From assembly GCA_016208745.1 (NCBI GenBank), contig JACQXN010000022.1, forward strand, positions 19,212 to 83,211: a stretch of 64,000 bases of DNA. The letters are read 5' to 3'. The position numbers were made by a program, and so were the translations under genes. The DNA comes from Candidatus Portnoybacteria bacterium. GTDB taxonomy: Bacteria; Patescibacteriota; Minisyncoccia; Portnoybacterales; GWB1-42-6. This document shows positions 2,014 to 56,792 of the stretch, piece after piece. The notes under the pieces were generated by a model. It was not told the origin of the DNA and made no database searches. It was given only the letters and a program-made list of their open reading frames with translations. Every line of letters begins with the position of its first letter. Position 1 is the first letter of the stretch.

Positions 2014-2054
2014 GATTTATACAGATAAACGCTGATATACAGATAGGATTTAAC

Positions 2055-2123
2055 TCCTCCCAGCCTCCTCTTTAAAAAAGAGGAAGAGCTCCCTCTCTTA
2101 TTTTAAGAGAGGGGTGGGGTGAG
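2055..2123. repeat. GC-rich hairpin element (family B copy), intergenic
   Basis: CCTCTTTaaaaaAGAGG and CCCTCTCTTAttttAAGAGAGGGG, then gtggggtgag. Confidence 0.6.
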
Positions 2124-2132
2124 TTAAATTTT

Positions 2133-4116: not shown

Positions 4117-4225
4117 CTGATATGTGATTCCTCCAAAAAAAACAAAACCCTTAGCAACCACGCTAGGGGTTATTTTTATCCTTATATTCTTTATTCGCCA
4201 TTGCAAAAATTTTGTTATAAAATCG

Positions 4226-4324
4226 CGGCGAGCTGAGTGTTTAAAAAATTACCTACGGAGGAGCAAAGCGACGAGTTTAGGAGGTAATTTTTAACAAAGC
4301 GAGTCCGATTTTATCAAAATTTTA
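4226..4324. repeat. ~100 nt structured repeat (family D copy 1) with 11 bp stem AAAAATTACCT/AGGTAATTTTT
   Basis: Near-identical architecture and flanks to 15258-15356; compensatory stem changes between copies. Confidence 0.6.
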
Positions 4325-4398
4325 TGCTTGGCGAGAGTTTTTTGCCTACTTTTTGTCGGTACAAAAAGTAGGTCCTTGCCGTCTTTAGATAAAGACGA

Positions 4399-5730
4399 TT
4401 AACGCATTCCTCTAAGTTCTTCTTTTACAATCTCGCTCTCCTGCCAAGGAATCTTTTTCCCATTTTCCACACACATCCAAACCTCTCCCCCTTTGCCAGT
4501 TAGAATAACCGCATCTCCGGCTTTCGCTAAACTCAATGCTTTTTTTATCGCTTCACGACGATCTAAAATTTCATAGACATTGGAAATTGGTAATTGGGTA
4601 TTGGAAATTCCAGATTTTATCTCCGATAAAATCTGGGTTGGGTCTTCATCATAAGGATCTTCATTGGTAATAATTACATAATCCGCGTATTCTCCAGCCA
4701 AGCGGCCTAAAGCCGCTCTTTTTGATTTATCGCGGCCGCCGCCCTGTGCGCCAAGCAAAGCAATAATTTTTCGCGGATTAAAAATTTTAAGCGCTTTGTA
4801 AGCCGATTCAAGAGAAGCCGGCTCGTGAGCATAATCAACGATAACTGTAAATGGCTGACCTTCATTAATTACTTCCAAACGGCCCGGCGCTGGTTTGGCA
4901 TTTTTTAGAGCCTCTTTTATTTTATCGACTCCGATTCCTTGCGAAATTGCTACGCAAATTGCCGCCGCAGCGTTATACATATTAACCTCGCCGATAAGAG
5001 GCGTAATAAAATTTTCACTGTTAAAATCGAATTCGGTTCTATCCGAGGCCAATTTAATGTTTGCAATTTGAAGCTTTCCAAATCCTCCCCAACCCTCCCT
5101 AAAGGGAGGGAGCGATTCCCCTCCTTTAGGAGGGGCTAGGGGAGATTTTAAAAAATACCCCATTTTTTTCGCCATTGGAATTTTCAAAAAATATTCTGTG
5201 CTCTCATCATCCAAATTATAAACTCCAATTCCGTTTTTCTTTTTCGCCACGGCTTCAAATAATTTTAATTTTGCTGCCCGATAATTTTCAAAACTGCCGT
5301 GGCGCTCAATGTGCTCGGGCGATAAATTAGTAAAAACCGCGACTGAATAATTAATGCCTTTGTGCCGATGCTGCAGAATTCCCTCTGAAGAAGTTTCAAT
5401 TACCGCGTATTTGCATCCTTCGCTAACCATTTGCCGCAATAATTTCTGCAATTTGAATCGGCCAAGCATAGTCTGCTTATAATCATTTATCCACTCCTTA
5501 TCCCTAATTCTAAAATTTACCGTTGTCGCCATGCCGGTTTTAAACCCCGCGCCCTGCAAAATCTGAGCGATTAAATTACAAGTCGTTGTTTTCCCTTTTG
5601 TCCCGGTCACGCCAATTACAATCAATTTCCGTGACGGAAAACCATACACAAGCGCGCCCAAATAAGCGAGCAACCAATGGTACCAACTAAAAATAAAATT
5701 CGGGATAAGTTTTTTTAGAATATTTTTCAT
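4399..5730 (-). CDS. Mur ligase family protein (MurE-like UDP-MurNAc-peptide ligase) with N-terminal membrane anchor
   Basis: GVTGTKGKTTT P-loop and DYAHEP motif of Mur ligases. N-terminus is a TM helix rather than a MurE N-domain. Carries an in-frame palindromic element at 5079-5149. Confidence 0.75.
   Translation of the reverse strand: MKNILKKLIPNFIFSWYHWLLAYLGALVYGFPSRKLIVIGVTGTKGKTTTCNLIAQILQGAGFKTGMATTVNFRIRDKEWINDYKQTMLGRFKLQKLLRQMVSEGCKYAVIETSSEGILQHRHKGINYSVAVFTNLSPEHIERHGSFENYRAAKLKLFEAVAKKKNGIGVYNLDDESTEYFLKIPMAKKMGYFLKSPLAPPKGGESLPPFREGWGGFGKLQIANIKLASDRTEFDFNSENFITPLIGEVNMYNAAAAICVAISQGIGVDKIKEALKNAKPAPGRLEVINEGQPFTVIVDYAHEPASLESAYKALKIFNPRKIIALLGAQGGGRDKSKRAALGRLAGEYADYVIITNEDPYDEDPTQILSEIKSGISNTQLPISNVYEILDRREAIKKALSLAKAGDAVILTGKGGEVWMCVENGKKIPWQESEIVKEELRGMR
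5079..5149. repeat. GC-rich nested-hairpin element (family A copy) inserted in-frame within Mur ligase CDS
   Basis: AAATCCTCCCC..CCCTCCCTAAAGGGAGGG..CCCCTCCTTTAGGAGGGG..GGGGAGATTTT. Translated in-frame on the minus strand as SPLAPPKGGESLPPFREGWGGF. Confidence 0.8.
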
Positions 5731-6105: not shown

Positions 6106-7194
6106 TCATCTTAAAATATTTCTTGTCGCTTTGTATATCTTGTACCACCATCTATTAAAAATGTAATTGTGCGTGCCGCAAAACGCGACTTCATACCCCC
6201 CAAAACCCTTCTTAAATCGGCTCACACCCGGCCATTTTTGTTCGTCATAACCCCAAAAATCATAATATTTACAGCCCTGATTTTTGACAAATTTTATCTG
6301 CTCCCATTGTAAAAGATGCGGCGCCATCAAACTGCGAGACTCGTTATCGGATCCGCCATGAATATAAATTGCTGTACTATTAAAAATATTTACTAAATTC
6401 GCGGCGATTGTTTTTCCTTGATATTGGGCTAAAAATAATAAATTCTCAAAATTTAACTCACCCTCGCTCTCTCTTAAAATAAGAGAGGGAATTACGTCTG
6501 TATTCTCTCCCCCTCTTAAATTAAGAGGGGGGTGGGGGGAGTTATTTCCAATTTGCAACTGCTTTCTATAATATTCTTTCTCAAAAATCTTTATCCCCTG
6601 TCTTTTTGCGGTCTGATTAAGCAAACTCCAAAATTCTTCAAAGTCTTTTTCGTTATACTCTGTCCTCCTTATTGTTACGCCTTTGCGCTGGGCAAGATTA
6701 ATATTATAACGTGTTTTCTCATGCATAGCCGCCAACAATTCTTCTTCACTTCTATCCAAATTTAAAATCAGAGTCCTGCTTGGCTGGATATCTTTTGTTT
6801 TTGAAAAACCCAACCCCCTTAAATCCTCCCTACTTATTTCAAAAGTCGGCTCGATTCTTAAAAATATCGCATTTTCTTGTTTAGCTAGATGTTTAACTTC
6901 CCGTAAAAAGCCCTGCATTCGCAGGAGATTCATCTCCGCCCGATGGCGGATCAGAATGGCATCTCGTGTTAATTCTGAAATTATTAGAGGGCCTCGCGGG
7001 CAATACAGATAGCTTTTCCCCAGCGGTAAATTATATTTAATTATTAAACCTGCCCAATCTTTGCCTTTCAGGAAAAAAGTTTTTCTCCCTAATGATTTCT
7101 GAAACTCCGCCCATTCTAAAGACTGCAAAAAACCGCCGCCTTGCTTCAAAACAAACTCATTCCAATCCTCTTTTCCGCCTTCATAAATAGCCAT
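6106..7194 (-). CDS. FemAB-family peptidoglycan interpeptide-bridge aminoacyltransferase
   Basis: FLQSLEWAEF N-terminal and LLQWEQIKFVKNQGCKYYDFWG C-terminal motifs typical of FemABX. Likely ATG at 7194 (track start 7239 is TTG). Contains an in-frame repeat at 6457-6541. Confidence 0.75.
   Translation of the reverse strand: MAIYEGGKEDWNEFVLKQGGGFLQSLEWAEFQKSLGRKTFFLKGKDWAGLIIKYNLPLGKSYLYCPRGPLIISELTRDAILIRHRAEMNLLRMQGFLREVKHLAKQENAIFLRIEPTFEISREDLRGLGFSKTKDIQPSRTLILNLDRSEEELLAAMHEKTRYNINLAQRKGVTIRRTEYNEKDFEEFWSLLNQTAKRQGIKIFEKEYYRKQLQIGNNSPHPPLNLRGGENTDVIPSLILRESEGELNFENLLFLAQYQGKTIAANLVNIFNSTAIYIHGGSDNESRSLMAPHLLQWEQIKFVKNQGCKYYDFWGYDEQKWPGVSRFKKGFGGYEVAFCGTHNYIFNRWWYKIYKATRNILR
6457..6541. 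repeat. GC-rich hairpin element (family B copy) inserted in-frame in FemAB CDS
   Basis: TCTCTCTTAAAATAAGAGAG and CCCCCTCTTAAATTAAGAGGGGGG hairpins. Encodes SPHPPLNLRGGENTDVIPSLILRESEGE inside the ORF. Confidence 0.75.
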
Positions 7195-7231
7195 ATTCTT
7201 AATGGCATTGTAGCGTAAAAAAATCCGAAAG

Positions 7232-7262
7232 ACAAACAAAAAAGGCAGTTATGACTGCCTTT
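7232..7262 (-). terminator. Rho-independent terminator for gene 7261-7671
   Basis: Hairpin AAGGCAGTtatgACTGCCTT followed on the minus strand by a T-run. Confidence 0.5.
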
Positions 7263-8277: not shown

Positions 8278-8288
8278 AATCTATTTTT

Positions 8289-8377
8289 TCCTCCTCCCCT
8301 CAGATGAGGGGAGGATTGAGGTGGGGTGCTGAAAAACACCACCACCCCCTGCCCCCTCCTCAACTGAGGAGGGGAAG
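8289..8377. repeat. GC-rich hairpin element (family B copy), intergenic
   Basis: CCTCCTCCCCTCAGATGAGGGGAGG..GAGGTGGGGTG..CCCTCCTCAACTGAGGAGGGG. Near-identical to 45667-45799 except for an internal ~50 nt indel. Confidence 0.7.
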
Positions 8378-8429
8378 AAAAAATTAAATAGTTTCTGCTT
8401 TCAGTATACCTCCCGCCCGCGCGAAATTC

Positions 8430-8745: not shown

Positions 8746-8842
8746 ATTACGTCTCCTCTGTGAGTTTTTAATGCCTGAAAATAATAAATAAAACGAACTA
8801 TCTAGCGAATTGAATTAATAATTGTATACCATAAACCAATTT

Positions 8843-10921
8843 ATGTCAACCTTCAAGCTCCGCGCACCATTTCGCCCAACAGGTGACCAGCCAGGCGCAA
8901 TAAATGCACTAGTTAAAAATTTAAAGACTGGCATTAAGCATCAGACGCTTTTGGGTGTGACAGGAAGCGGCAAAACTTTTACTATGGCCAATGTGATTGA
9001 GAAAAATCAAAAACCAACATTGGTTATTTCGCATAATAAAACTTTGGCGGCCCAGCTTTATCAGGAATTTAAAGAGTTTTTTCCGGAAAACGCCGTGCAT
9101 TTTTTCGTCTCCTATTATGACTACTACCAACCCGAAGCCTATATCCCCCAAACCGACACCTATATTGATAAAGACGTAAAAATCAACGATGAAATTGACC
9201 GCCTGCGCCACGCCGCCACGCAGGCGCTTTTAACCAGAAATGACACGATTGTTGTGGCTTCAGTTTCTTGCATTTATAATATCGGCTCGCCAGAAGAATA
9301 TCAGAATTTGAGTTTAGAGTTTAAGAAAGGCCAATTTTTGAGCCGCCAGAAATTTTTAAGGCATTTAATATCTCTGCAATACCAGCGATCGGATGTTGAT
9401 TTCAAAAGAGGCACATTTAAAGTCCGGGGCGATTTAATTGAGGTCTGGTCAGCCACTGGCGAACAAATATTAAAATTTGATTTTTTTGGCAATCAGATAG
9501 AAAAAATATCAGAAATCAATTTGCCCAATAATATTTTAAAAGCAGACAAGGAAAAAGAAGTTAAACAGGCAAGAGTTTTTCCGGCTAAATACTGGGTCGC
9601 GCCAGAGCAGAAATTGGGCTTAGCAATAAAAAATATTAAATTGGAGCTTGAAAACCAGCTGGAAAAATTAAAAAGACAGAATAAAATTCTTGACGCCGAA
9701 CGGCTTAAGCGGCGCACCAACTTTGACCTTGAAATAATCAAAGAAACCGGCTATTGTCACGGCGTTGAAAATTATTCACGGCATTTGGAATTTCGCAAAC
9801 CCGGCGAGCCGCCTTTCACCTTATTGGACTATTTTCCAAAAGACTATTTATTGATTATTGACGAATCGCACATGACTGTTCCCCAGCTTAACGGAATGTA
9901 TTTTGGCGACCGCTCGCGCAAAGAAACTTTAATTGAGTATGGCTTCCGCTTGCCTTCGGCGCTTGATAACCGACCGCTTAAATTTAATGAGTTCGAGAAA
10001 AAGGTTGATCAAGTTGTCTATACTTCGGCAACGCCCAGTAAGTACGAAATCGAGAAATCAAAGTCTGTCTGCACGAAAAAAAATCCTCCCCATCCCTCCT
10101 CCGTATCAAGTACGGGGCAAGCTCTAAAGGGAGGGAGTGATTCCCCTCCTTTAGGAGGGGCAAGGGGAGATTTTTGCATCATCCAGCAGCTCATCCGCCC
10201 CACTGGCCTGCTTGATCCGGCAATAGAAATCCGTTCAACTAAAAATCAAATTCCACATTTAATCAAGCAAATCAAAGAAACGGTCGAAAGTGGTGCCAGG
10301 GTTTTAGTAACAACAATTACCAAACGCCTCTCCGAAGACTTATCGGAATATTTGCAAGAGCAAGGAATAAAAGCCCAATATCTGCATTCTGAAATTAAAA
10401 CATTGGAACGACCGGAAATTTTGAAAGATTTAAGACTTGGCAAAATCGACGTTTTGGTTGGCATTAATCTTTTAAGAGAGGGGCTGGATTTACCAGAAGT
10501 TGGGCTGGTGGCAATTTTGGATGCTGACAAGGAAGGCTTTTTGCGCAATGACACAACGCTTATCCAAACAATGGGCCGCGCTTCTCGCCATCCGCAAGGC
10601 CGCGTTATTATGTATGCTGACAAGATTACCCAATCAATGAAACGCGCAATTTCTGAAACCAATCGCCGGCGCAAAATTCAGGAAAGCTATAATAAAAAAC
10701 ATAAAATCACGCCCCAGCCAATTAAAAAAGGCATCCGGCCAAGCATTGTAGAAATTACAAAAATGCCAAAAGGAGCGCTAAAAACTGAGAAAGAATATCT
10801 GGAAGAATACATTAAGGAGCTTGAGTTTAAAATGGAACTGGCTAATCGGAATTTGCAATTTGACGAAGCAATGAGACTGCAAGAACAAATTAATAAATTA
10901 AAAAGGGCGACGAAAAAATAA
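8843..10921 (+). CDS. uvrB: Excinuclease ABC subunit B (UvrB) with ~33 aa in-frame palindromic-element insertion
   Basis: GVTGSGKTF Walker A, helicase motifs, C-terminal UVR domain. Segment CTKKNPPHPSSVSSTGQALKGGSDSPPLGGARGDFC interrupts the conserved ELEKS...RPTGLLDP region. The track start at 8822 is TTG; the ATG at 8843 is more likely. Confidence 0.9.
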   Translation: MSTFKLRAPFRPTGDQPGAINALVKNLKTGIKHQTLLGVTGSGKTFTMANVIEKNQKPTLVISHNKTLAAQLYQEFKEFFPENAVHFFVSYYDYYQPEAYIPQTDTYIDKDVKINDEIDRLRHAATQALLTRNDTIVVASVSCIYNIGSPEEYQNLSLEFKKGQFLSRQKFLRHLISLQYQRSDVDFKRGTFKVRGDLIEVWSATGEQILKFDFFGNQIEKISEINLPNNILKADKEKEVKQARVFPAKYWVAPEQKLGLAIKNIKLELENQLEKLKRQNKILDAERLKRRTNFDLEIIKETGYCHGVENYSRHLEFRKPGEPPFTLLDYFPKDYLLIIDESHMTVPQLNGMYFGDRSRKETLIEYGFRLPSALDNRPLKFNEFEKKVDQVVYTSATPSKYEIEKSKSVCTKKNPPHPSSVSSTGQALKGGSDSPPLGGARGDFCIIQQLIRPTGLLDPAIEIRSTKNQIPHLIKQIKETVESGARVLVTTITKRLSEDLSEYLQEQGIKAQYLHSEIKTLERPEILKDLRLGKIDVLVGINLLREGLDLPEVGLVAILDADKEGFLRNDTTLIQTMGRASRHPQGRVIMYADKITQSMKRAISETNRRRKIQESYNKKHKITPQPIKKGIRPSIVEITKMPKGALKTEKEYLEEYIKELEFKMELANRNLQFDEAMRLQEQINKLKRATKK
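10081..10172. repeat. GC-rich nested-hairpin element (family A copy) in-frame in uvrB
   Basis: ~85 percent identical over 92 nt to 42961-43054, with the same outer AAATCCTCCCC/GGGGAGATTTT and two inner hairpins. Confidence 0.85.
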
Positions 10922-15189: not shown

Positions 15190-15257
15190 AACGCTCCTTT
15201 AATATGTATTAAAAATTCAGCCTTCTCCTTGCATCGAAAAATTTTGCAAGAAAATTG

Positions 15258-15356
15258 AGATGAGCGAGGCGTTTGAAAAATTGCCGAGCGACGAGGGAAG
15301 CGAGGAGTTTACGAGGCAATTTTTAGATGAGCGAATCCAATTTTCTCAAAATTTTA
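15258..15356. repeat. ~100 nt structured repeat (family D copy 2)
   Basis: Matches 4226-4324 including flanks gagcgag..gttt(g/a)aaaaatt and gagcgaatccaattttctcaaaatttt. Stem covaries (TTGCC/GGCAA versus TTACCT/AGGTAA). Confidence 0.6.
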
Positions 15357-15431
15357 TCGCTGCAAGTGGTTTTTTGGTTACTTTTTTGTCATCAAAAAAG
15401 CAACTCTTTACCGCCTTTGGATAAAGGCGAT

Positions 15432-19151: not shown

Positions 19152-19277
19152 ATTCTAAATTTCTAATTAATCTAATTCCTAATTGACCTAAATAATTTCC
19201 AATTACTAATTCCTAATTTCCAATAAAATGTCTAATGTCTAATTCCCGAATTTGGGCATTGGGATTTTTGTTAGAAA
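19152..19277. repeat. Low-complexity CTAATTCC-type intergenic palindromic repeat (family F)
   Basis: ctaattcctaatt units plus ttgggcattggg, the reverse complement of the block at 60428-60445. Confidence 0.5.
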
Positions 19278-33543: not shown

Positions 33544-33837
33544 TTAACTAATGAATCTCATTTTTTCTATTAACTCCTTACCAAATAATTGATTAAGGTG
33601 TTGAATAATTCTTATTTGTTTTAATTGAAGATCAGAGGCCCAAATAGAGTTTAGGCAGTCAACGATTAAAACCTTATCCTTGAAAGAAACCGGTTTGGTT
33701 TTATTTCTATAAACTTCTCCGAAAAGTTCTACTAAAATTTTATCCCAACCCAAAGCAAGCTGGTTAAATTCTAAAACCGGGCCGAGGTTTAGTTTGTTTA
33801 TCGTAAAGGGGAGAATTTTTTTTAGCGTGACCCACAT
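33544..33837 (-). CDS. DUF721 (DciA-like) protein downstream of dnaN
   Basis: 97 aa; conserved position after dnaN and C-terminal pattern typical of DUF721. Confidence 0.55.
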   Translation of the reverse strand: MWVTLKKILPFTINKLNLGPVLEFNQLALGWDKILVELFGEVYRNKTKPVSFKDKVLIVDCLNSIWASDLQLKQIRIIQHLNQLFGKELIEKMRFIS

Positions 33838-33842
33838 TATAG

Positions 33843-34946
33843 TTAGGTTTTAATTGGCATTATTACATACAGAAATCCATCTTCGCCAGAGGGCCTAATA
33901 ACAGATGGACTGGTTTCTGAATTTAATCCCAAGGAAACATTTTTTGTTGAGATATTGCTTAAGCCATCCAAAAAATAACGAAAGTTAAAGATAACTTCCA
34001 TTGGTTTACCTTTGACATCAGCTGGGATTTGGGATTTATTTTCACCCAAATCAGCATCTTGAGACAAAATATCAATCTTACCAGAATAAATAGACAGCTT
34101 AACGTCATTTATTTTACTGCTAAAAATACTGGCGATTTTAATATTATTAACAAACTCATCCTTAAGAAGGGTTGCCTGAGTTTCAAAGCTTTTGGGGATA
34201 ATTTGTTGATAATCAGGGTATTGGCCGTCAATAATCCTTGAAATCAATTGCACCTCATTAGTCTCAAATAAAACTTGGCTATCGCCCAAAATAAACCTAA
34301 CTTCATTATCTGGCTTTTCGGTTAATATCCTAATTAGTTCCTGAATGGTGCGCTGGGGAATAATTAAAGAGATTGGTTTTGTAATTAAATTATTTGTCTG
34401 ATAGATAGTTTTTTCGGCTAGTCTAAAGCTGTCGGTTGCCACAAATTTAATTGCTTCTTTGTCTATTTTAAAAAGGATTCCTGAAATTTCAGGCCTTGAT
34501 TCAGAAAGAGCAGCCGAACCAACAACTTGAGATAAATTATTTTTTAATATCTCGCCTTTTTTAAAAATTATAATCGGCTTTTCTTTTATTTTAGGAATTA
34601 AAGGAAAATCATCAGACGGCAGACCCTTGATGCTAGCTTTGTAATTTTCACACCTAACAAAAAGGGTGTTATCTTTTACCTCTAGTTCAATTTTTTTATT
34701 TGGTAAACTATTAATAAAACTGCTTAATATTTTAGCTGGACAAGTAATTGAACCTTGTTTTTCTATTTTTCCTGAAGTCCAAGTGTTAATACCAATTTCA
34801 AGATTAGTTGAAGAAATTTTTAATCGGCCACCCTCGGTTTCAAGTAATAAATTATTTAAAATCGGCAAAGTTAAATTACGGCCAACAATATTTTGGGTAA
34901 TATTTAAATTGGTTTTTAGATTTTCCTGAAGACAGATAATTTTCAT
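33843..34946 (-). CDS. dnaN: DNA polymerase III beta sliding clamp
   Basis: 367 aa, three-domain clamp pattern, immediately downstream of dnaA. Confidence 0.9.
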   Translation of the reverse strand: MKIICLQENLKTNLNITQNIVGRNLTLPILNNLLLETEGGRLKISSTNLEIGINTWTSGKIEKQGSITCPAKILSSFINSLPNKKIELEVKDNTLFVRCENYKASIKGLPSDDFPLIPKIKEKPIIIFKKGEILKNNLSQVVGSAALSESRPEISGILFKIDKEAIKFVATDSFRLAEKTIYQTNNLITKPISLIIPQRTIQELIRILTEKPDNEVRFILGDSQVLFETNEVQLISRIIDGQYPDYQQIIPKSFETQATLLKDEFVNNIKIASIFSSKINDVKLSIYSGKIDILSQDADLGENKSQIPADVKGKPMEVIFNFRYFLDGLSNISTKNVSLGLNSETSPSVIRPSGEDGFLYVIMPIKT

Positions 34947-35152
34947 TAATTTAATTTTTAATTTATTTTAATGTTATATTTATTAAGTAATTACTTATTT
35001 GTGGAAAAGTTTGTTTTGTTGAAGACTGTATTAAATTTTTTATTTAATATATTGTTGATAATATATTAAAATTTAAGGGGATTATTATTATTTGTAATTA
35101 TTTTTTATAAAATAATTATTTTATAAAGTATTTATCCACCAGATATTAATTA
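34947..35152. promoter_or_regulatory. Candidate oriC: AT-rich dnaA-dnaN spacer with DnaA-box-like motifs
   Basis: ~85 percent A+T. TTATCCACC at 35132-35140 and TGTGGAAAA at 35000-35008 are each 8/9 to consensus. TATTTGTGGAAA recurs at 36835-36847 upstream of dnaA. Confidence 0.4.
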
Positions 35153-36523
35153 TTAAATACTATAAAATCTTTCTTTAATTAAATTAATTTCTTGTTGTAG
35201 GGATTCGTTTTTTTGTAGCTCTCTATTTAATTTTTCACAAGCATACATAACAGTTGTATGATCTCTGCCGCCTAACTTCTCACCAATAAAAGGAAAGGAG
35301 CTTTTTAATTCCTCCCTGATTAAAAACATAGCTACTTGTCTTGGCCAGACTAACTCTTTTTTACGACAACGATTAATTAGGTGGCTAGTGTTTATATCGT
35401 AAAATTCTGATACTGCCTGAAGAATAACTTTATAACTTATTTTTTTAGAAGGAGGTGAGGTAATGCCGGTTAGTATTTTTGAAATTTGCTCCAATGACGG
35501 CAGGGAGCCGCTTAATTTAAGGGTAATCATTACTCTATTTAATGCTCCTTCAAGCTCCCTGATATTTTTTTGAATATTGGCAGCGATATAATTTAACACC
35601 TCATCGCTTATTTGAAGATTTTTTTCGTAACACTTTGCTTTTAATATAGCGATTCTTGATTCTAAATCAGGATAGCTGATATCAGCGATCATTCCCCCTT
35701 CAAATCGTGATTTTAATCTTTCTTCAAGCGTTGAGATAGCTTTGGGCGGCCGATCAGAACTTATAATTATCTGTTTATTGTTTTGATATAAGGCGTTAAA
35801 GGTATGGAAGAATTCTTCCTGAGTTTTTTCTTTGCCGGATAAAAACTGAACATCATCAATAATTAAGACATCGATTTTTCGGTAACTATTCTTAAATTCC
35901 TCCATTTGCCCATTATAAAGGGCAGCGACTAGCTCATTGGTAAATTTTTCAGAACTTGTATAGCAGATTTTTTTCTCGTTTTTAAAGTTTTTAACTATTT
36001 CGTTGCCAATTGCTTGGATAAGATGGGTTTTGCCCAGCCCCACCCCGCCATAAATAAATAAGGGGTTATAGAGCCGGCCAAGGTTTTTAGTTATTGCTTG
36101 GGCAGCCGCTTGGGCCAATTCATTGAACGAACCGACAATAAAATTATCAAAAGTGTATTTTGGATTAAGGTGGGTCTCTTTGTTGATCTCAAGCTCTTGG
36201 AAAGACTGATTGACAATTTCGGTTTCTTTCCGTCTGGGAGGAGTTGATCGTCCAGGCGTTGCCAGTTCTGGCAAGGAAATCGCGGCAATGACAAATTCAA
36301 CCTCTTTTACTTCAGGTAAAATATTTCGCAGAGCTCTTAATATTAATTTATTGTATTTATTCTCCAGCCACTCTTTAGAAAAAGCATTAGGGACGCCGAC
36401 TGTCGCGGCGCCTTCTCTGGTTTTTATTACATCGGTGTTCCGAAACCAAGTAATAAAGTTTGTCTTGGAAATATTGAGTTCAATTTCCCCTAAGGCAGCT
36501 TGCCAAAGCTCGTGGTTGGTCAT
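35153..36523 (-). CDS. dnaA: Chromosomal replication initiator DnaA
   Basis: GGVGLGKTHL Walker A, AAA+ motifs, C-terminal DnaA-box-binding HTH; 456 aa. Confidence 0.92.
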   Translation of the reverse strand: MTNHELWQAALGEIELNISKTNFITWFRNTDVIKTREGAATVGVPNAFSKEWLENKYNKLILRALRNILPEVKEVEFVIAAISLPELATPGRSTPPRRKETEIVNQSFQELEINKETHLNPKYTFDNFIVGSFNELAQAAAQAITKNLGRLYNPLFIYGGVGLGKTHLIQAIGNEIVKNFKNEKKICYTSSEKFTNELVAALYNGQMEEFKNSYRKIDVLIIDDVQFLSGKEKTQEEFFHTFNALYQNNKQIIISSDRPPKAISTLEERLKSRFEGGMIADISYPDLESRIAILKAKCYEKNLQISDEVLNYIAANIQKNIRELEGALNRVMITLKLSGSLPSLEQISKILTGITSPPSKKISYKVILQAVSEFYDINTSHLINRCRKKELVWPRQVAMFLIREELKSSFPFIGEKLGGRDHTTVMYACEKLNRELQKNESLQQEINLIKERFYSI

Positions 36524-37056
36524 AGAGATTTATCGGCTAGAAGCGATTATAATTTCTAACCTTTGTTTTTAAAAAATAAACAAATATCAGCCCCCGTCAT
36601 TTATTGGCGGGTAGAGAGCGGGCTGTATAAATCTCAGTAGTTTTACAGAAGGCGTCTGTATTTAAAGAAAGCCTTTTGTAAAACCGCTGAGGGAGCAGGC
36701 GGTTTTGTAGCGTGTCCTGCTTGGCCCGAATTTTAATGGACTTTTTAACTTTTCCAATTATATCACAAAGAAAATTATTGAGAATAACCCTGTCTATGGC
36801 CAGAAAGACACAATTTTGTTAATAAGGTGTGCAGTATTTGTGGAAATCATTTTTTAAATTGACTTCGTAATTATTTAATACTATACTTAATTTAATCCAA
36901 TGTCAAAATATGCCGGGTAGTGAAAATTTGGCAGATAACATTCTTCCTCCGTAAAAGTTTCAAAACCGGCAAAGGCGAACAAAAATTAAGTAGAAACGAT
37001 TTCTAAGATTAAATTTATTAACGAATTTAATCTTAGCCAAATTTCTGCTAATCGGT

Positions 37057-37191
37057 ATGAGTATAACCTATAAGCCCAAAAAAAGAAAACGCAAGAAAAC
37101 CCACGGGTTTTTGAAAAGAATGAGGAAATTCGGCGGCCGTCGGGTTTTAAAAAAAAGAAGAGCCAAGGGCCGTAAGCATTTAACGGTTTAA
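37057..37191 (+). CDS. rpmH: 50S ribosomal protein L34
   Basis: Manual translation [44 protein letters not shown] (44 aa). Not in the ORF track because it is under 60 aa. Confidence 0.85.
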
Positions 37192-37194
37192 TCA

Positions 37195-37539
37195 ATGTTA
37201 CCCAAAATTCAGAGATTAAGAAAGGCCGGTGATTTCAAAACGGCCCTAAAAAGCGGGCGGTTTGTCAGGGGCGAATTAATGGATATAAGATTTTCTGCGA
37301 ACGATCTTGGTATTTGCCGTTTTGGCTTTATAATAAGCGCCAAGGTTTCCAAAAAGGCTGTTTTGCGCAATCGGGCGCGCCGACAAATATCCCAAGCAGC
37401 TAAGGCGCTTATCGGTTATATCAGGCCCGGTTATGATTTTGTGATTATTGCTAAACCAAAAATCATCGGCAAAGATTCTGGTGAAATTAACCAAAAATTA
37501 AATGACTTTTTTAAGAAAACTAACCTTTTTAGTCAATAA
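37195..37539 (+). CDS. rnpA: Ribonuclease P protein component
   Basis: [14 protein letters not shown]-terminus and RNR-like motif (RNRARRQ); 114 aa directly after rpmH. Confidence 0.85.
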
Positions 37540-37783
37540 AGCCGCCTTAATTTCTATTAGATTTTATCAGGTTGCTTTATCGCCAGATCAGGGAATTTTA
37601 CGAAAACAAAATAATGTCTGCCGATTTTATCCCTCCTGCTCTCATTACAGCTTTGGCGTGATTAAAAGATTCGGTGTTATGAGGGGCGCTTGGTTGTCTT
37701 TTAGAAGAATTTTAAGATGCCACCCGCTAAGTAGCGGGGGTTACGATCCTATCCCCCCAATTAAAAACAATGGACATAATTAG
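37502..37783 (+). CDS. yidD: Membrane protein insertion efficiency factor YidD
   Basis: [11 protein letters not shown] ... [12 protein letters not shown] signature. Confidence 0.75.
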
Positions 37784-42960: not shown

Positions 42961-43054
42961 AAATCCTCCCCAACCCTCTCCCCGTATCAAGTCCGGGGCA
43001 AGCTCTAAAAGGAGAGAGCGATCCCCCTCCTTTAGGAGGGGTTAGGGGAGATTT
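42961..43054. repeat. GC-rich nested-hairpin element (family A copy), intergenic
   Basis: Near-identical to the uvrB-internal copy at 10081-10172. Confidence 0.8.
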
Positions 43055-43065
43055 TAGCTAGTCTC

Positions 43066-45128: not shown

Positions 45129-45167
45129 AAAATCCCCCTTAATCCCCCTTTAAAAAGGGGGAGATAG
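45129..45167. repeat. GC-rich hairpin element (family B short copy), intergenic
   Basis: aaaatcccccttaatCCCCCTTTAAAAAGGGGGagat; 39 nt near-identical to 56052-56090. Confidence 0.7.
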
Positions 45168-45186
45168 TTGTCTTATGATTTGAAAG

Positions 45187-45639: not shown

Positions 45640-45666
45640 TTATTGTGGGCTACGAAACACTCTTTT

Positions 45667-45799
45667 CCTCCTCCCCTCAGATGAGGGGAGGATTGAGGTG
45701 GGGTGATGATTATTCGCGTGGACGCATTTGCATGAATTCGCGCCATTTAAATGCAATCAACACCACCCCCTACCCCTCCTCATCTGAGGAGGGGAGGAG
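45667..45799. repeat. GC-rich hairpin element (family B copy with ~50 nt internal palindromic insert), intergenic
   Basis: Same termini as 8289-8377 (CCTCCTCCCCTCAGATGAGGGGAGG ... CATCTGAGGAGGGGAGGAG). Confidence 0.7.
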
Positions 45800-48409: not shown

Positions 48410-48432
48410 AAAGTTAATTTAAATATCAAATT

Positions 48433-48859: not shown

Positions 48860-48911
48860 AACTCAAATATCAAAGCACGATTTCACGCTTGGTAATATTA
48901 TCGGTCTTCGG

Positions 48912-48982
48912 AAATCCTCCCCAACCATCCCTAAAGGGAGGGGGTTGTTCCCCTCCTTTAGGAGGGGTTAGGGGAGATTTTA
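48912..48982. repeat. GC-rich nested-hairpin element (family A copy), intergenic
   Basis: AAATCCTCCCCAACCATCCCTAAAGGGAGGG..CCCCTCCTTTAGGAGGGGTTAGGGGAGATTTT. Confidence 0.8.
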
Positions 48983-49041
48983 AAAGCAGCATTGTTTGGC
49001 TGACGGAAATGTTTTAAGCCTCGAGCTTTTAATTTCTAATT

Positions 49042-55796: not shown

Positions 55797-56792
55797 TTAT
55801 TGGTTATTTAAATTTAATTCCTTCGTTATCCTTGTCCAATCTTCAGCTCTCAATGTTTCTGCCCTTTGGCTTGGCGAAATACCAGCTTTTTTTAAGGCCT
55901 CTTCAACTATTTTGCGGTTAATTTTTAACCCTTTTGTTAAGTTACCGGCTAATTGTTTGCGGGGAGCAGAAAAACCGGCGCGGACGACTTTAAAAAAATC
56001 ACTTGCCCCCTCCTTTTTAAAGGAGGGCTGGGGTGGATTTTCTTTTTCTACAAAATCCCCCTTAATCCCCCTTTTATAAAGGGGGAGATGGCTTTTTGGT
56101 ATAATCTTAATTATCGCCGAATCGACTTTTGGTTGCGGCCAGAAACAGCTTTTGGAAACATAATGCAAAATTTTTGGCTGGGCGTAAAATTGCACCGAAA
56201 CCGCCAAGAGACTCATTTCGGGCGGCTCGGCACAAATTCTTTGGGCTACTTCTTTTTGTACCATTAAAATCATTTCGCTTGGCGGATTATTTGATTCCAG
56301 AAACTTTCTAATAACGGGCGAGGTTATATAGTAAGGAAGATTGGCGACGAGTTTGTAATTATATACTTTTGTCATCCCGGGCTTGAACCGGGATCCAGAC
56401 GTCGTTCCTGCGAAAGCAGGGATCTGCTCATTATCCTGGATTCCCGTTTTCACGGGAATGACAAAAAGCGAGGTAATTGGAAATTTCAAGGCATCGCCTT
56501 CTATAATCTCTGCATTTCCATAATCTCTTAGTGTCTCTTTTAAAATTTGAATCATATTTCTCCCTTTTTCAATTGCGATAACCCTTTTTGCTTTTTTGGC
56601 TAATTCTTGTGTTAGCGTGCCAAGGCCCGGTCCAATTTCCAAAATCGTGTCGGCTTTTTTTATTTGTGCGGCTTCAATAATCTTATCTAATATATTTTTG
56701 TCAATTAAAAAATTCTGACCAAGCTGTTTTAGGGGCGTGGTGCCATATTTTGATAGCAGATATTTAATTGTTTGCGCGGATAAAAGGTTCAT
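55797..56792 (-). CDS. rsmA: 16S rRNA (adenine1518/1519-N6)-dimethyltransferase RsmA/KsgA carrying two in-frame repeat-element insertions
   Basis: SAM motif ILEIGPGLGTLT, NLPYYITSP catalytic motif, PQPKVDSAII. At 331 aa it is ~50-60 aa longer than typical KsgA. Confidence 0.8.
   Translation of the reverse strand: MNLLSAQTIKYLLSKYGTTPLKQLGQNFLIDKNILDKIIEAAQIKKADTILEIGPGLGTLTQELAKKAKRVIAIEKGRNMIQILKETLRDYGNAEIIEGDALKFPITSLFVIPVKTGIQDNEQIPAFAGTTSGSRFKPGMTKVYNYKLVANLPYYITSPVIRKFLESNNPPSEMILMVQKEVAQRICAEPPEMSLLAVSVQFYAQPKILHYVSKSCFWPQPKVDSAIIKIIPKSHLPLYKRGIKGDFVEKENPPQPSFKKEGASDFFKVVRAGFSAPRKQLAGNLTKGLKINRKIVEEALKKAGISPSQRAETLRAEDWTRITKELNLNNQ
56006..56090. repeat. GC-rich hairpin element (family B copy) in-frame in rsmA
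   Basis: CCCCTCCTTTTTAAAGGAGGG..ctggggtggatttt..aaaatcccccttaatCCCCCTTTATAAAGGGGGagatgg. Encodes ...KGDFVEKENPPQPSFKKEGA... inside KsgA. Confidence 0.75.
56371..56462. repeat. Family C hairpin repeat in-frame in rsmA
   Basis: GTCATCCCGGGcttgaaCCGGGAT..CCTGCgaaaGCAGG..GGATTCCCGttttcaCGGGAATGAC. Encodes FPITSLFVIPVKTGIQDNEQIPAFAGTTSGSRFKPGMT between DALKF and KLVANLPYY. Confidence 0.75.

Follow-up and report, generated by a model that had tools for sequence, protein, structure and literature searches.

The 64,000-nucleotide stretch analyzed here (called the window throughout) comes from a 95-kb contig of a metagenome-assembled genome (MAG) of Candidatus Portnoybacteria and carries on its minus strand an intact gene for a MurE-like Mur ligase, murE, whose product is annotated MurE at NCBI (MBI4709294.1). 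Inside this gene, and opposite to it in orientation, lies a 69-nt copy of a palindromic repeat family whose other copies occur both between and within genes. The gene, the element and its parts are listed below with the evidence for each.

4399..5730, minus strand: MurE-like Mur ligase, 443 aa, intact, MBI4709294.1 (Pfam, PDB matches, structure model)
5080..5148, plus strand: complete 69-nt copy of the repeat in its short form (covariance model R1 and alignment with 48 other copies)
5080..5148, minus strand: 23 codons, K195–F217 (KSPLAPPKGGESLPPFREGWGGF), the sole stop-free minus-strand frame
5080..5090, plus strand: left terminal inverted repeat AAATCCTCCCC, pairing with 5139–5148 (outer stem on folding)
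5093..5110, plus strand: hairpin 1, CCCTCCC TAAA GGGAGGG (sequence, folding)
5111..5117, plus strand: linker AGCGATT joining the two half-units (alignment)
5118..5135, plus strand: hairpin 2, CCCCTCC TTTA GGAGGGG (sequence, folding)
5139..5148, plus strand: right terminal inverted repeat GGGGAGATTT (folding, alignment)

Pfam assigned Mur_ligase_M to residues 41–261 of the host protein, in a single stretch across the insert, and Mur_ligase_C to residues 283–414. In the PDB sequence search, the best solved relatives of the protein were MurE enzymes (E 1e-58), and the near-invariant Mur ligase residues were all present, on both sides of the insert. The open reading frame (ORF) at 4399–5730 runs continuously across 5080–5148, where its translation is ...GYFLKSPLAPPKGGESLPPFREGWGGFGKLQ... 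without stops. Read as the reverse complement of the element (AAA TCT CCC CTA ... GGA GGA TTT), the insert gives K195–F217, preceded by the host residues Y192-F193-L194 and followed by G218-K219; the bordering DNA is ...GGGTATTTTTTA on one side and GGAAAGCTTCAA on the other. An earlier examination of the letters alone (the sequence-only reading) had reported a stop-free peptide of the element inside the Mur ligase, and K195–F217 includes that peptide. It had also raised the possibility of a damaged ligase gene; since the translation is stop-free and the Pfam domains span and flank the insert, the murE ORF is not disrupted.

The AlphaFold2 model of the host protein was built with 31 orthologues (mean predicted local distance difference test score, pLDDT, 82.6; predicted template modeling score, pTM, 0.84). 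It showed the complete MurE fold and matched the S. aureus MurE structure 4c12 with a template modeling (TM) score of 0.81. Residues 194–216 formed a coil between the strands 188–193 and 217–227, with pLDDT below 50 at 198–215. The insert segment was left unaligned to T. maritima MurE by HMMER, and no Pfam domain was found inside it. Among the 120 listed orthologues, the segment from the YNLD motif to LIGEFN varied from 36 to 111 residues, being mostly 56–63 residues long. The K195–F217 peptide, whose conservation in Mur ligases lacking the repeat had been considered in the sequence-only reading, was absent from all 119 other listed orthologues. Judging from the model, the insert is probably a disordered, Pro/Gly-rich surface loop of MurE.

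The element has the order AAATCCTCCCC-AA-hairpin 1-AGCGATT-hairpin 2-CTA-GGGGAGATTT, with bounds at 5080–5148 (5079–5149 as first proposed). Its termini are imperfect inverted repeats of 10–11 bp, of which the left was invariant or nearly so in the alignment of 49 copies, and both 7-bp hairpins have left arms of pure C/T and right arms of pure G/A. On folding with DNA parameters, either single strand gave a three-way junction of about −19.5 kcal/mol (z about −2.4 relative to shuffles). As the letters read, hairpin 2 pairs an anti-Shine–Dalgarno-like CCTCCTTT with a Shine–Dalgarno-like AGGAGG.

The repeat status of the element goes beyond chance: its 18-nt core had four matches versus 0.04 expected, and the repeat finder placed 5063–5152, 10088–10177, 42969–43058 and 48895–48984 in one group. 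Covariance model R1, built from 49 distinct copies, matched the murE copy over its full length (1–74 of 74, E 7e-29) with 96.6 bits on the plus strand versus 70.4 on the minus strand; the copy in uvrB scored 62 versus 38 bits. These strand scores bore out the earlier claim that the same family is present at murE, oriented like the uvrB copy and opposite to the minus-strand ligase gene. No Rfam family, not even tRNA, reached its gathering score anywhere in the 64-kb window, and near the murE element Rfam gave only sub-threshold hairpin look-alikes, e.g., miRNA precursors and Sso133 (26.8 bits versus a threshold of 44). The element was flagged on neither strand as an intrinsic terminator, and this candidate was rejected.

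Further features of the host gene were noted. Its product, as well as all close orthologues, has no N-terminal Mur ligase domain (PF01225), starts at about residue 85–90 of the solved MurE structures and begins with a hydrophobic N-terminal helix. A second repeat-derived stretch of murE, at 4579–4609, is the AT-rich ATTGGAAATTGGTAATTGGGTATTGGAAATT, an inverted match of 19194–19224 that encodes ISNTQLPISN. At this position the orthologues carry other inserts, including peptides of the CHSGLDPESR...FRGNDK type.

The repeat family and its doublet architecture

In the window, model R1 detected four main copies, the murE one among them, and four more distant doublets. Those outside murE are as follows.

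10081..10173, plus strand: uvrB copy, long form, 93 nt, in-frame in uvrB (8822–10921, plus strand) and read as KNPPHPSSVSSTGQALKGGSDSPPLGGARGDF (model R1)
42961..43054, plus strand: intergenic copy of the long form, its 94 nt not divisible by 3 (repeat finder, ORF map, model)
48912..48980, plus strand: short form, 69 nt, intergenic (repeat finder, ORF map, model R1)
6455..6543, no strand assigned (30 bits on either strand): distant doublet, in-frame in a FemAB-family ORF, 6106–7239, minus strand (Pfam FemAB)
55972..56040, minus strand: distant doublet, in-frame in an rRNA adenine dimethylase (ksgA/rsmA) ORF, 55797–56792, minus strand (model R1, Pfam)
2052..2125, minus strand: distant doublet, intergenic (39.6 bits)
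45130..45181, plus strand: distant doublet, intergenic (25.3 bits on the plus versus 20.3 on the minus strand)

Four of about 55 genes in the window (murE, uvrB, the femAB-like gene and ksgA) contain in-frame palindromic repeats. The genomes of Patescibacteria are tiny, and most of their genes are presumed to be essential.

In the alignment of 49 copies the linker was hypervariable in length and sequence, and the arms were almost invariant. The right half was also found alone at many intergenic sites and its reverse complement resembles the left half; because of these features together with the variable linker, the unit is a doublet of two inverted half-units. A half-unit consists of an AAATC-CCCC tail and a 7-bp C/T:G/A hairpin, and two of them give the terminal inverted repeats and the three-way junction. 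A count of covarying pairs looked strong but was set aside as evidence: the underlying copies had been gathered by exact-match patterns, and both strands of each copy were aligned, which swaps hairpins 1 and 2 and creates false compensatory pairs.

Several side observations concern the individual copies. In the MAG JAHILT01 (L001–L005, L009, L010, L018, L020 and L021), the right half-unit CCCCTCCTTTAGGAGGGGTTAGGGGAGATTT occurs many times alone in AT-rich intergenic DNA. The long form (10081–10173 and 42961–43054) holds a nested mini-hairpin of 24–25 nt (CCGTA TCAAG TACGG...) in loop 1 of hairpin 1, a sequence arrangement that suggests elements inserting into elements. At its doublet, the FemAB-family protein reads ...SPHPPLNLRGGENTDVIPSLILRESEGE..., and it has 377 aa versus 330 aa in the syntenic L097 orthologue. 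The ksgA/rsmA-like ORF contains two different repeat families in-frame, at 55972–56089 and 56399–56430: GC-rich palindromes (ENPPQPSFKKEGA...) and a GTCGTTCCTGCGAAAGCAGGGATC-type repeat (VIPVKTGIQ...), the latter present also at 48431 and 56876. The Pfam RrnaAD match of this ORF ends at profile position 195 of 263.

Outside the window, the right half was sought as an exact pattern in one genome per species (185,579 species representatives) and the left half in metagenomes. The right half gave 32 stretches, all in Patescibacteria-type assemblies or unclassified MAGs; the labels were Portnoybacteria, Magasanikbacteria, 'Parcubacteria group', some Saccharibacteria and some just 'bacterium'. The left half gave 63 metagenome contigs. 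Carriage by phages was rejected, as neither half had an exact match in viral contigs.

A link between orientation and replication was also rejected: the four main copies are all plus-oriented and lie on both sides of the origin region (n = 4). This region, 33800–37600, is probably the chromosomal origin, as DnaA, DNA polymerase III beta, RNase P protein, YidC and R3H/Jag-like families are among the Pfam families of the window, only the RNase P match being tied to a specific ORF (37195–37539). It also corresponds to the minimum of the cumulative GC skew and to a block of 30% GC at 34–36 kb.

Reading frames of the copies inside genes

Seventy-one end-to-end copies of 66–99 nt were drawn from the window and 95 public loci, all of them metagenome assemblies. 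A copy was classified as genic when the open frame around it had 200 codons or more and extended for no fewer than 25 codons to either side. Thirty-eight of the 71 copies (54%) were genic, representing 30 distinct events after removal of duplicates. Among the 20 hosts scanned with Pfam were MiaA, three Wzy_C ligases, Mur ligases including a MurC-like one, UvrB, two UvrC, two SecA, a class I tRNA synthetase, ThrRS (class II), a pseudouridine synthase, BacA, FemAB and a radical SAM protein. One of the 20 had no Pfam match and the others had normal domains around the insert.

All 26 plus-oriented genic events were in frame +2 (NPPQPSLKGGS...SPPLGGVRGDF). The minus orientation was found in four of the 30 events; three of them (murE of the window and the Wzy_C genes L036 and L040) used frame −1 (KSPLAPPKGGE...LPPFREGWGGF), and the fourth (BacA, L073) used another minus-strand frame. 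The arrangement in murE is real and recurrent, yet it represents the minority orientation.

The sequence-only reading had pointed out that the element is open on both strands and had proposed a six-frame translation of all copies. Exactly one stop-free frame per strand (+2 and −1) was found in 45 of the 71 copies, including that in murE, and the stop-free frames of most copies are those used by most genic copies. The stops in the other four frames come from the loops TAAA/TTTA and from CTAG. The openness on both strands was thus confirmed, but it is unremarkable, as shuffled sequences behave likewise: the mean number of open frames out of six was 2.27 in dinucleotide-preserving and 2.46 in mononucleotide shuffles, each strand had one open frame or more with a probability of 0.70–0.80, and random 69-mers of the window had 2.22 open frames. 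Since the two open frames of the element equal these expectations, there is no enrichment for open frames.

The length was a multiple of 3 in 37 of the 38 genic copies, the exception (L091) having doubtful boundaries, whereas the other 33 copies were distributed 16/9/8 by length modulo 3; this contrast is partly circular because an intact ORF is part of the definition of a genic copy. In the window, the long form has 93 nt inside uvrB versus 94 nt in the intergenic copy at 42961. As evidence independent of that definition, lengths not divisible by 3 were found in 14 distinct copies; twelve of these had no long ORF abutting both sides, and none clearly splits a gene. These data support the survivorship of frame-compatible copies under selection, and they fit the first of two alternatives offered in the sequence-only reading, namely, that copies are filtered for compatibility with ORFs.

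According to the second alternative, evolution of the family toward translatability, it would be a coding-adapted element tolerated or useful in proteins in either orientation. More than half of the sampled copies do lie inside intact genes, the peptides are Pro/Gly-rich and loop-like in both orientations, and the 26:4 bias to one reading suggests that the peptide or the mRNA strand matters. However, the two open frames of the consensus correspond to chance, it is the element's own conserved loops and CTAG that close the other frames, and the intergenic copies drift freely in length. The idea found no support in the frame counts, and we consider it quite improbable.

Most probably, the murE segment is a copy of a non-autonomous repeat family of Patescibacteria (Candidate Phyla Radiation, CPR) that lies in-frame and is simply translated, and the copies found in genes are the surviving in-frame subset. 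This doublet of inverted half-units is short, GC-rich and quasi-palindromic, and one copy of it would have inserted into a variable beta-hairpin loop of MurE's central domain or taken the place of part of that loop. The length of 23 codons and the position of the junction would have put the sole stop-free minus-strand frame in the register of the gene, so the gene would have stayed intact and the element would be translated as the loop K195–F217. Copies breaking the frame or bringing stops into essential genes would have been lost, and the survivors would be found in whichever orientation met an open frame.

Two other explanations of the intact frame were weighed against these data. The segment might remain untranslated owing to intron-like removal from the mRNA, ribosome bypass or intein-like protein splicing. 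Folding into a three-way junction is possible, and introns are common in RNA genes of Patescibacteria (PMC13011429), but a removed or bypassed segment needs neither freedom from stops nor a length that is a multiple of 3, and 29 of the 30 distinct genic events have both, with the boundaries of the exception in doubt. Moreover, 69 nt or 23 aa is far too small for a group I/II intron or an intein, and no Rfam intron was matched in the window; we regard this explanation as very improbable. A mis-assembly at the repeat, or a decaying pseudogene staying open by chance, is barely credible. The source is indeed metagenome-assembled, and assemblies break at repeats; nevertheless, both flanks keep the MurE frame, the near-invariant residues are present, the modeled fold is complete, and thirty independent in-frame events from other contigs and samples show the same pattern.

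Outside genes, seven intergenic copies (L006, L014, L029, L047, L055, L061 and L083) end 5–11 nt short of the ATG that opens a long ORF, which puts their terminal GGGGAG(G)A at a Shine–Dalgarno-like position.

The murE and uvrB sites in relatives

The comparison with related genomes at the murE site, which had been proposed along with the six-frame translation, was performed on the DNA of four orthologues (L096, L097, L098 and L099). In murE of L098 (P0013) the element is absent. L097 (P0004) is syntenic with the window (uvrB, ruvA, femAB, murE and a beta-CASP nuclease) and its protein is 75% identical. Its murE has a 66-nt element after the same codon, marginally in the same orientation (75.3 versus 71.9 bits), with the junction shifted by one base and CTAG changed to CCAG, so that a second minus-strand frame is read (NLPQPLLKEGGSLPKGRVREDL). 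In L096 (P0005), a 72-nt relative occupies the same host position in the opposite orientation (48.8 versus 37.2 bits), and in L099 (P0019) a compound insert with a different right junction is present. After removal of the element, the host sequence, derived by hand, is in frame in the window, L097 and L096 (YFL/GKLQI, YSL/EQFQI and YFF/EMFQI, respectively, the slash marking the junction).

A rough neighbour-joining tree was built from the conserved columns of the orthologues. The states of the murE site (none, plus element, minus element in frame 1, minus element in frame 2, compound insert, unrelated AT-rich repeat) were scattered among close relatives, and the state of the window was unique. 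P0003 (plus element) paired with P0009 (none of the family) and P0007 with P0019 (a different compound insert), while the window grouped with the element-free P0013, P0015 and P0020. A single ancient insertion fits these states less well than does a murE site, permissive or preferred, at which elements were gained, lost or replaced repeatedly. In uvrB, the window and L045 share both junctions, the orientation and the frame at 69% identity of the host proteins; uvrB of L097 has a different compound insert at the same place.

Altogether, the interpretation given in the sequence-only reading is partly supported. It had missed the minority orientation, the related elements that occupy this murE loop in other lineages, oriented otherwise or read in a different frame, and the doublet architecture.

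Several observations weigh against the explanation of the murE segment as a surviving in-frame insertion. The arms are 91% identical between murE of the window and L097 versus 67–81% for the flanking coding DNA, and in uvrB the arms of the window and L045 are 93% identical versus 64–72% for the flanks. Such conservation is not predicted for a purely neutral passenger, unless the insertions are recent and site-specific or the copies have been homogenized; recent site-specific insertion, homogenization among copies and structural constraint are all possible causes. The host protein is alone in its 90% cluster, its nearest relative having 76% identity, and no near-identical pair of filled and empty sites was available; the insertion into murE is therefore deduced rather than observed. 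With the 23 codons taken out, the loop is about 5–7 residues shorter than in the shortest orthologues, and what took place was no clean gain at a known empty site. Stop codons alone fail to account for the 26:4 orientation bias, as each strand offers one open frame. No direct repeat of 2–8 nt, at any boundary offset, occurred in more than five of 56 copies, which means that target-site duplication is absent. As to a target motif, nothing clear emerged: GATTT was weakly biased to a following T (35 of 56), and the left flanks were rich in A. No transposase was found among the Pfam families listed (25 of 47 and 25 of 32) for 49 ORFs of the window. Finally, every sequence used comes from a metagenome assembly.

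The conserved arms may also be accounted for if the copies within genes are ancient, have been passed on vertically and are maintained through selection for DNA or RNA structure rather than being recent selfish insertions. A Shine–Dalgarno/anti-Shine–Dalgarno-like hairpin tuning translation or mRNA stability, or a protein-binding site, would be possible roles. Besides the arm identities (91–93% versus 64–81% in flanking coding DNA), the shared uvrB insert of the window and L045, the nearly identical consensus across many Patescibacteria assemblies and the seven copies placed before ATG codons speak for such selection. Yet scattered states of the murE site are seen in close relatives, elements at one murE codon vary in orientation, frame and length, the linker is hypervariable, and the covariation count is confounded by the two-strand alignment. 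We find this explanation unlikely and favor the survival of in-frame copies of a presumably mobile family.

Relation to known repeat systems

The Rickettsia palindromic elements (RPE) are palindromic repeats found in-frame in housekeeping genes, about half of them being intragenic (Ogata et al. 2000, Science 290:347, summarised in PMC10969869). On comparison with known systems, the family described here seems closest to RPE in behavior and to REPIN doublets in architecture. Like RPE, it consists of short palindromic repeats of a reduced-genome bacterium that are both intergenic and in-frame in unrelated housekeeping genes, with inserts compatible with the protein fold; the murE copy itself is in-frame in an intact gene and encodes a fold-compatible loop, and its family is found between genes and in many genes. 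The two differ in the hosts (Alphaproteobacteria versus Patescibacteria) and in length (about 100–150 bp in RPE versus 66–99 nt). In contrast to RPE, the Patescibacteria family is GC-rich in an AT-rich genome, forms a doublet with a hypervariable linker and is read in at least three modes (one plus frame and two minus frames). The likeness is one of behavior; Rfam, of which no family reached its gathering score in the window, includes no RPE models.

In REPINs, repetitive extragenic palindromes (REP) are paired into doublets, which RAYT transposases mobilise (PMC3116915, PMC3337134). The family shares with them two inverted hairpin units, a variable spacer, the occurrence of singlets, the lack of target-site duplication and many copies per genome. 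REPINs are, however, extragenic, whereas 54% of the Patescibacteria copies lie inside ORFs. The GTAG or CGTC tag carried by REPs (PMC3733652) is present in neither the murE copy nor the conserved arms of the 49-copy alignment. No RAYT (Y1 transposase) was found among the Pfam families listed for 49 ORFs of the window, which covers 64 kb of the genome. REPIN/RAYT systems have been described mainly in Proteobacteria. A hairpin-recognising, duplication-free mobilisation of the IS200/IS605 or RAYT type may underlie the spread of the family.

The likeness to MITEs (miniature transposable elements with inverted repeats; ERIC, Correia/NEMIS, BOX and those of Anabaena; PMC10969869) lies in small size, terminal inverted repeats, non-autonomy and occasional in-frame fusions with host ORFs. 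The murE copy has the terminal inverted repeats and a size below about 300 bp; in contrast to MITEs, the family shows no target-site duplication and its intragenic fraction is far higher. A parent insertion sequence with matching ends did not come to light either, no search aimed at long elements with such ends having been made. The literature search found no description of such elements in Patescibacteria/CPR, its coverage of subscription journals being limited and a prior description possible.

A more far-reaching idea is that the family, rather than being carried along passively, is an active, Patescibacteria-wide system that re-targets the same nucleotide positions in housekeeping genes without target-site duplication. 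Examples of such targets would be, in murE, the site between the Y-x-L and (E/G)-x-(F/L)-Q-I codons and, in uvrB, the site before CII(E/Q)QL. The arms would be held by function or concerted evolution, and the hairpins might affect translation in genes and supply ribosome-binding sites before genes. We offer this idea tentatively, as one with some chance, though a limited one, of being right; if true, it would mean a lineage-specific generator of protein-loop variation and an undescribed hairpin-guided insertion mechanism.

For anyone who knows the family, the murE copy taken singly is nothing unusual, and it is the family-level picture that is worth a dedicated study: the high intragenic load in reduced genomes, one codon hit recurrently in either orientation and in two frames, and arms better conserved than the coding DNA around them. 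Part of the length variation and of the 'low-complexity inserts' in proteins of Patescibacteria may be repeat-derived, with consequences for annotation, alignment and phylogenomics. The family would be the second independent natural case, after Rickettsia, of selfish DNA creating protein loops, and the recurrently hit loops would provide a map of permissive sites in essential enzymes.

Other repeats were noticed in the window. Two GC-rich palindromes, TTTTCCTCCTCCCCTCAGATGAGGGGAGGATTGAGGTGGGGTG (98% identity between the sites) and CCCCT.CCCCTCCTCA.CTGAGGAGGGG, recur as a pair in the intergenic regions 8286–8378 and 45663–45798 and represent another member of the superfamily of C/T:G/A hairpins. 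A direct repeat of 121 nt, 76% identical, occupies the intergenic positions 4205–4325 and 15237–15357, each adjoining minus-strand genes.

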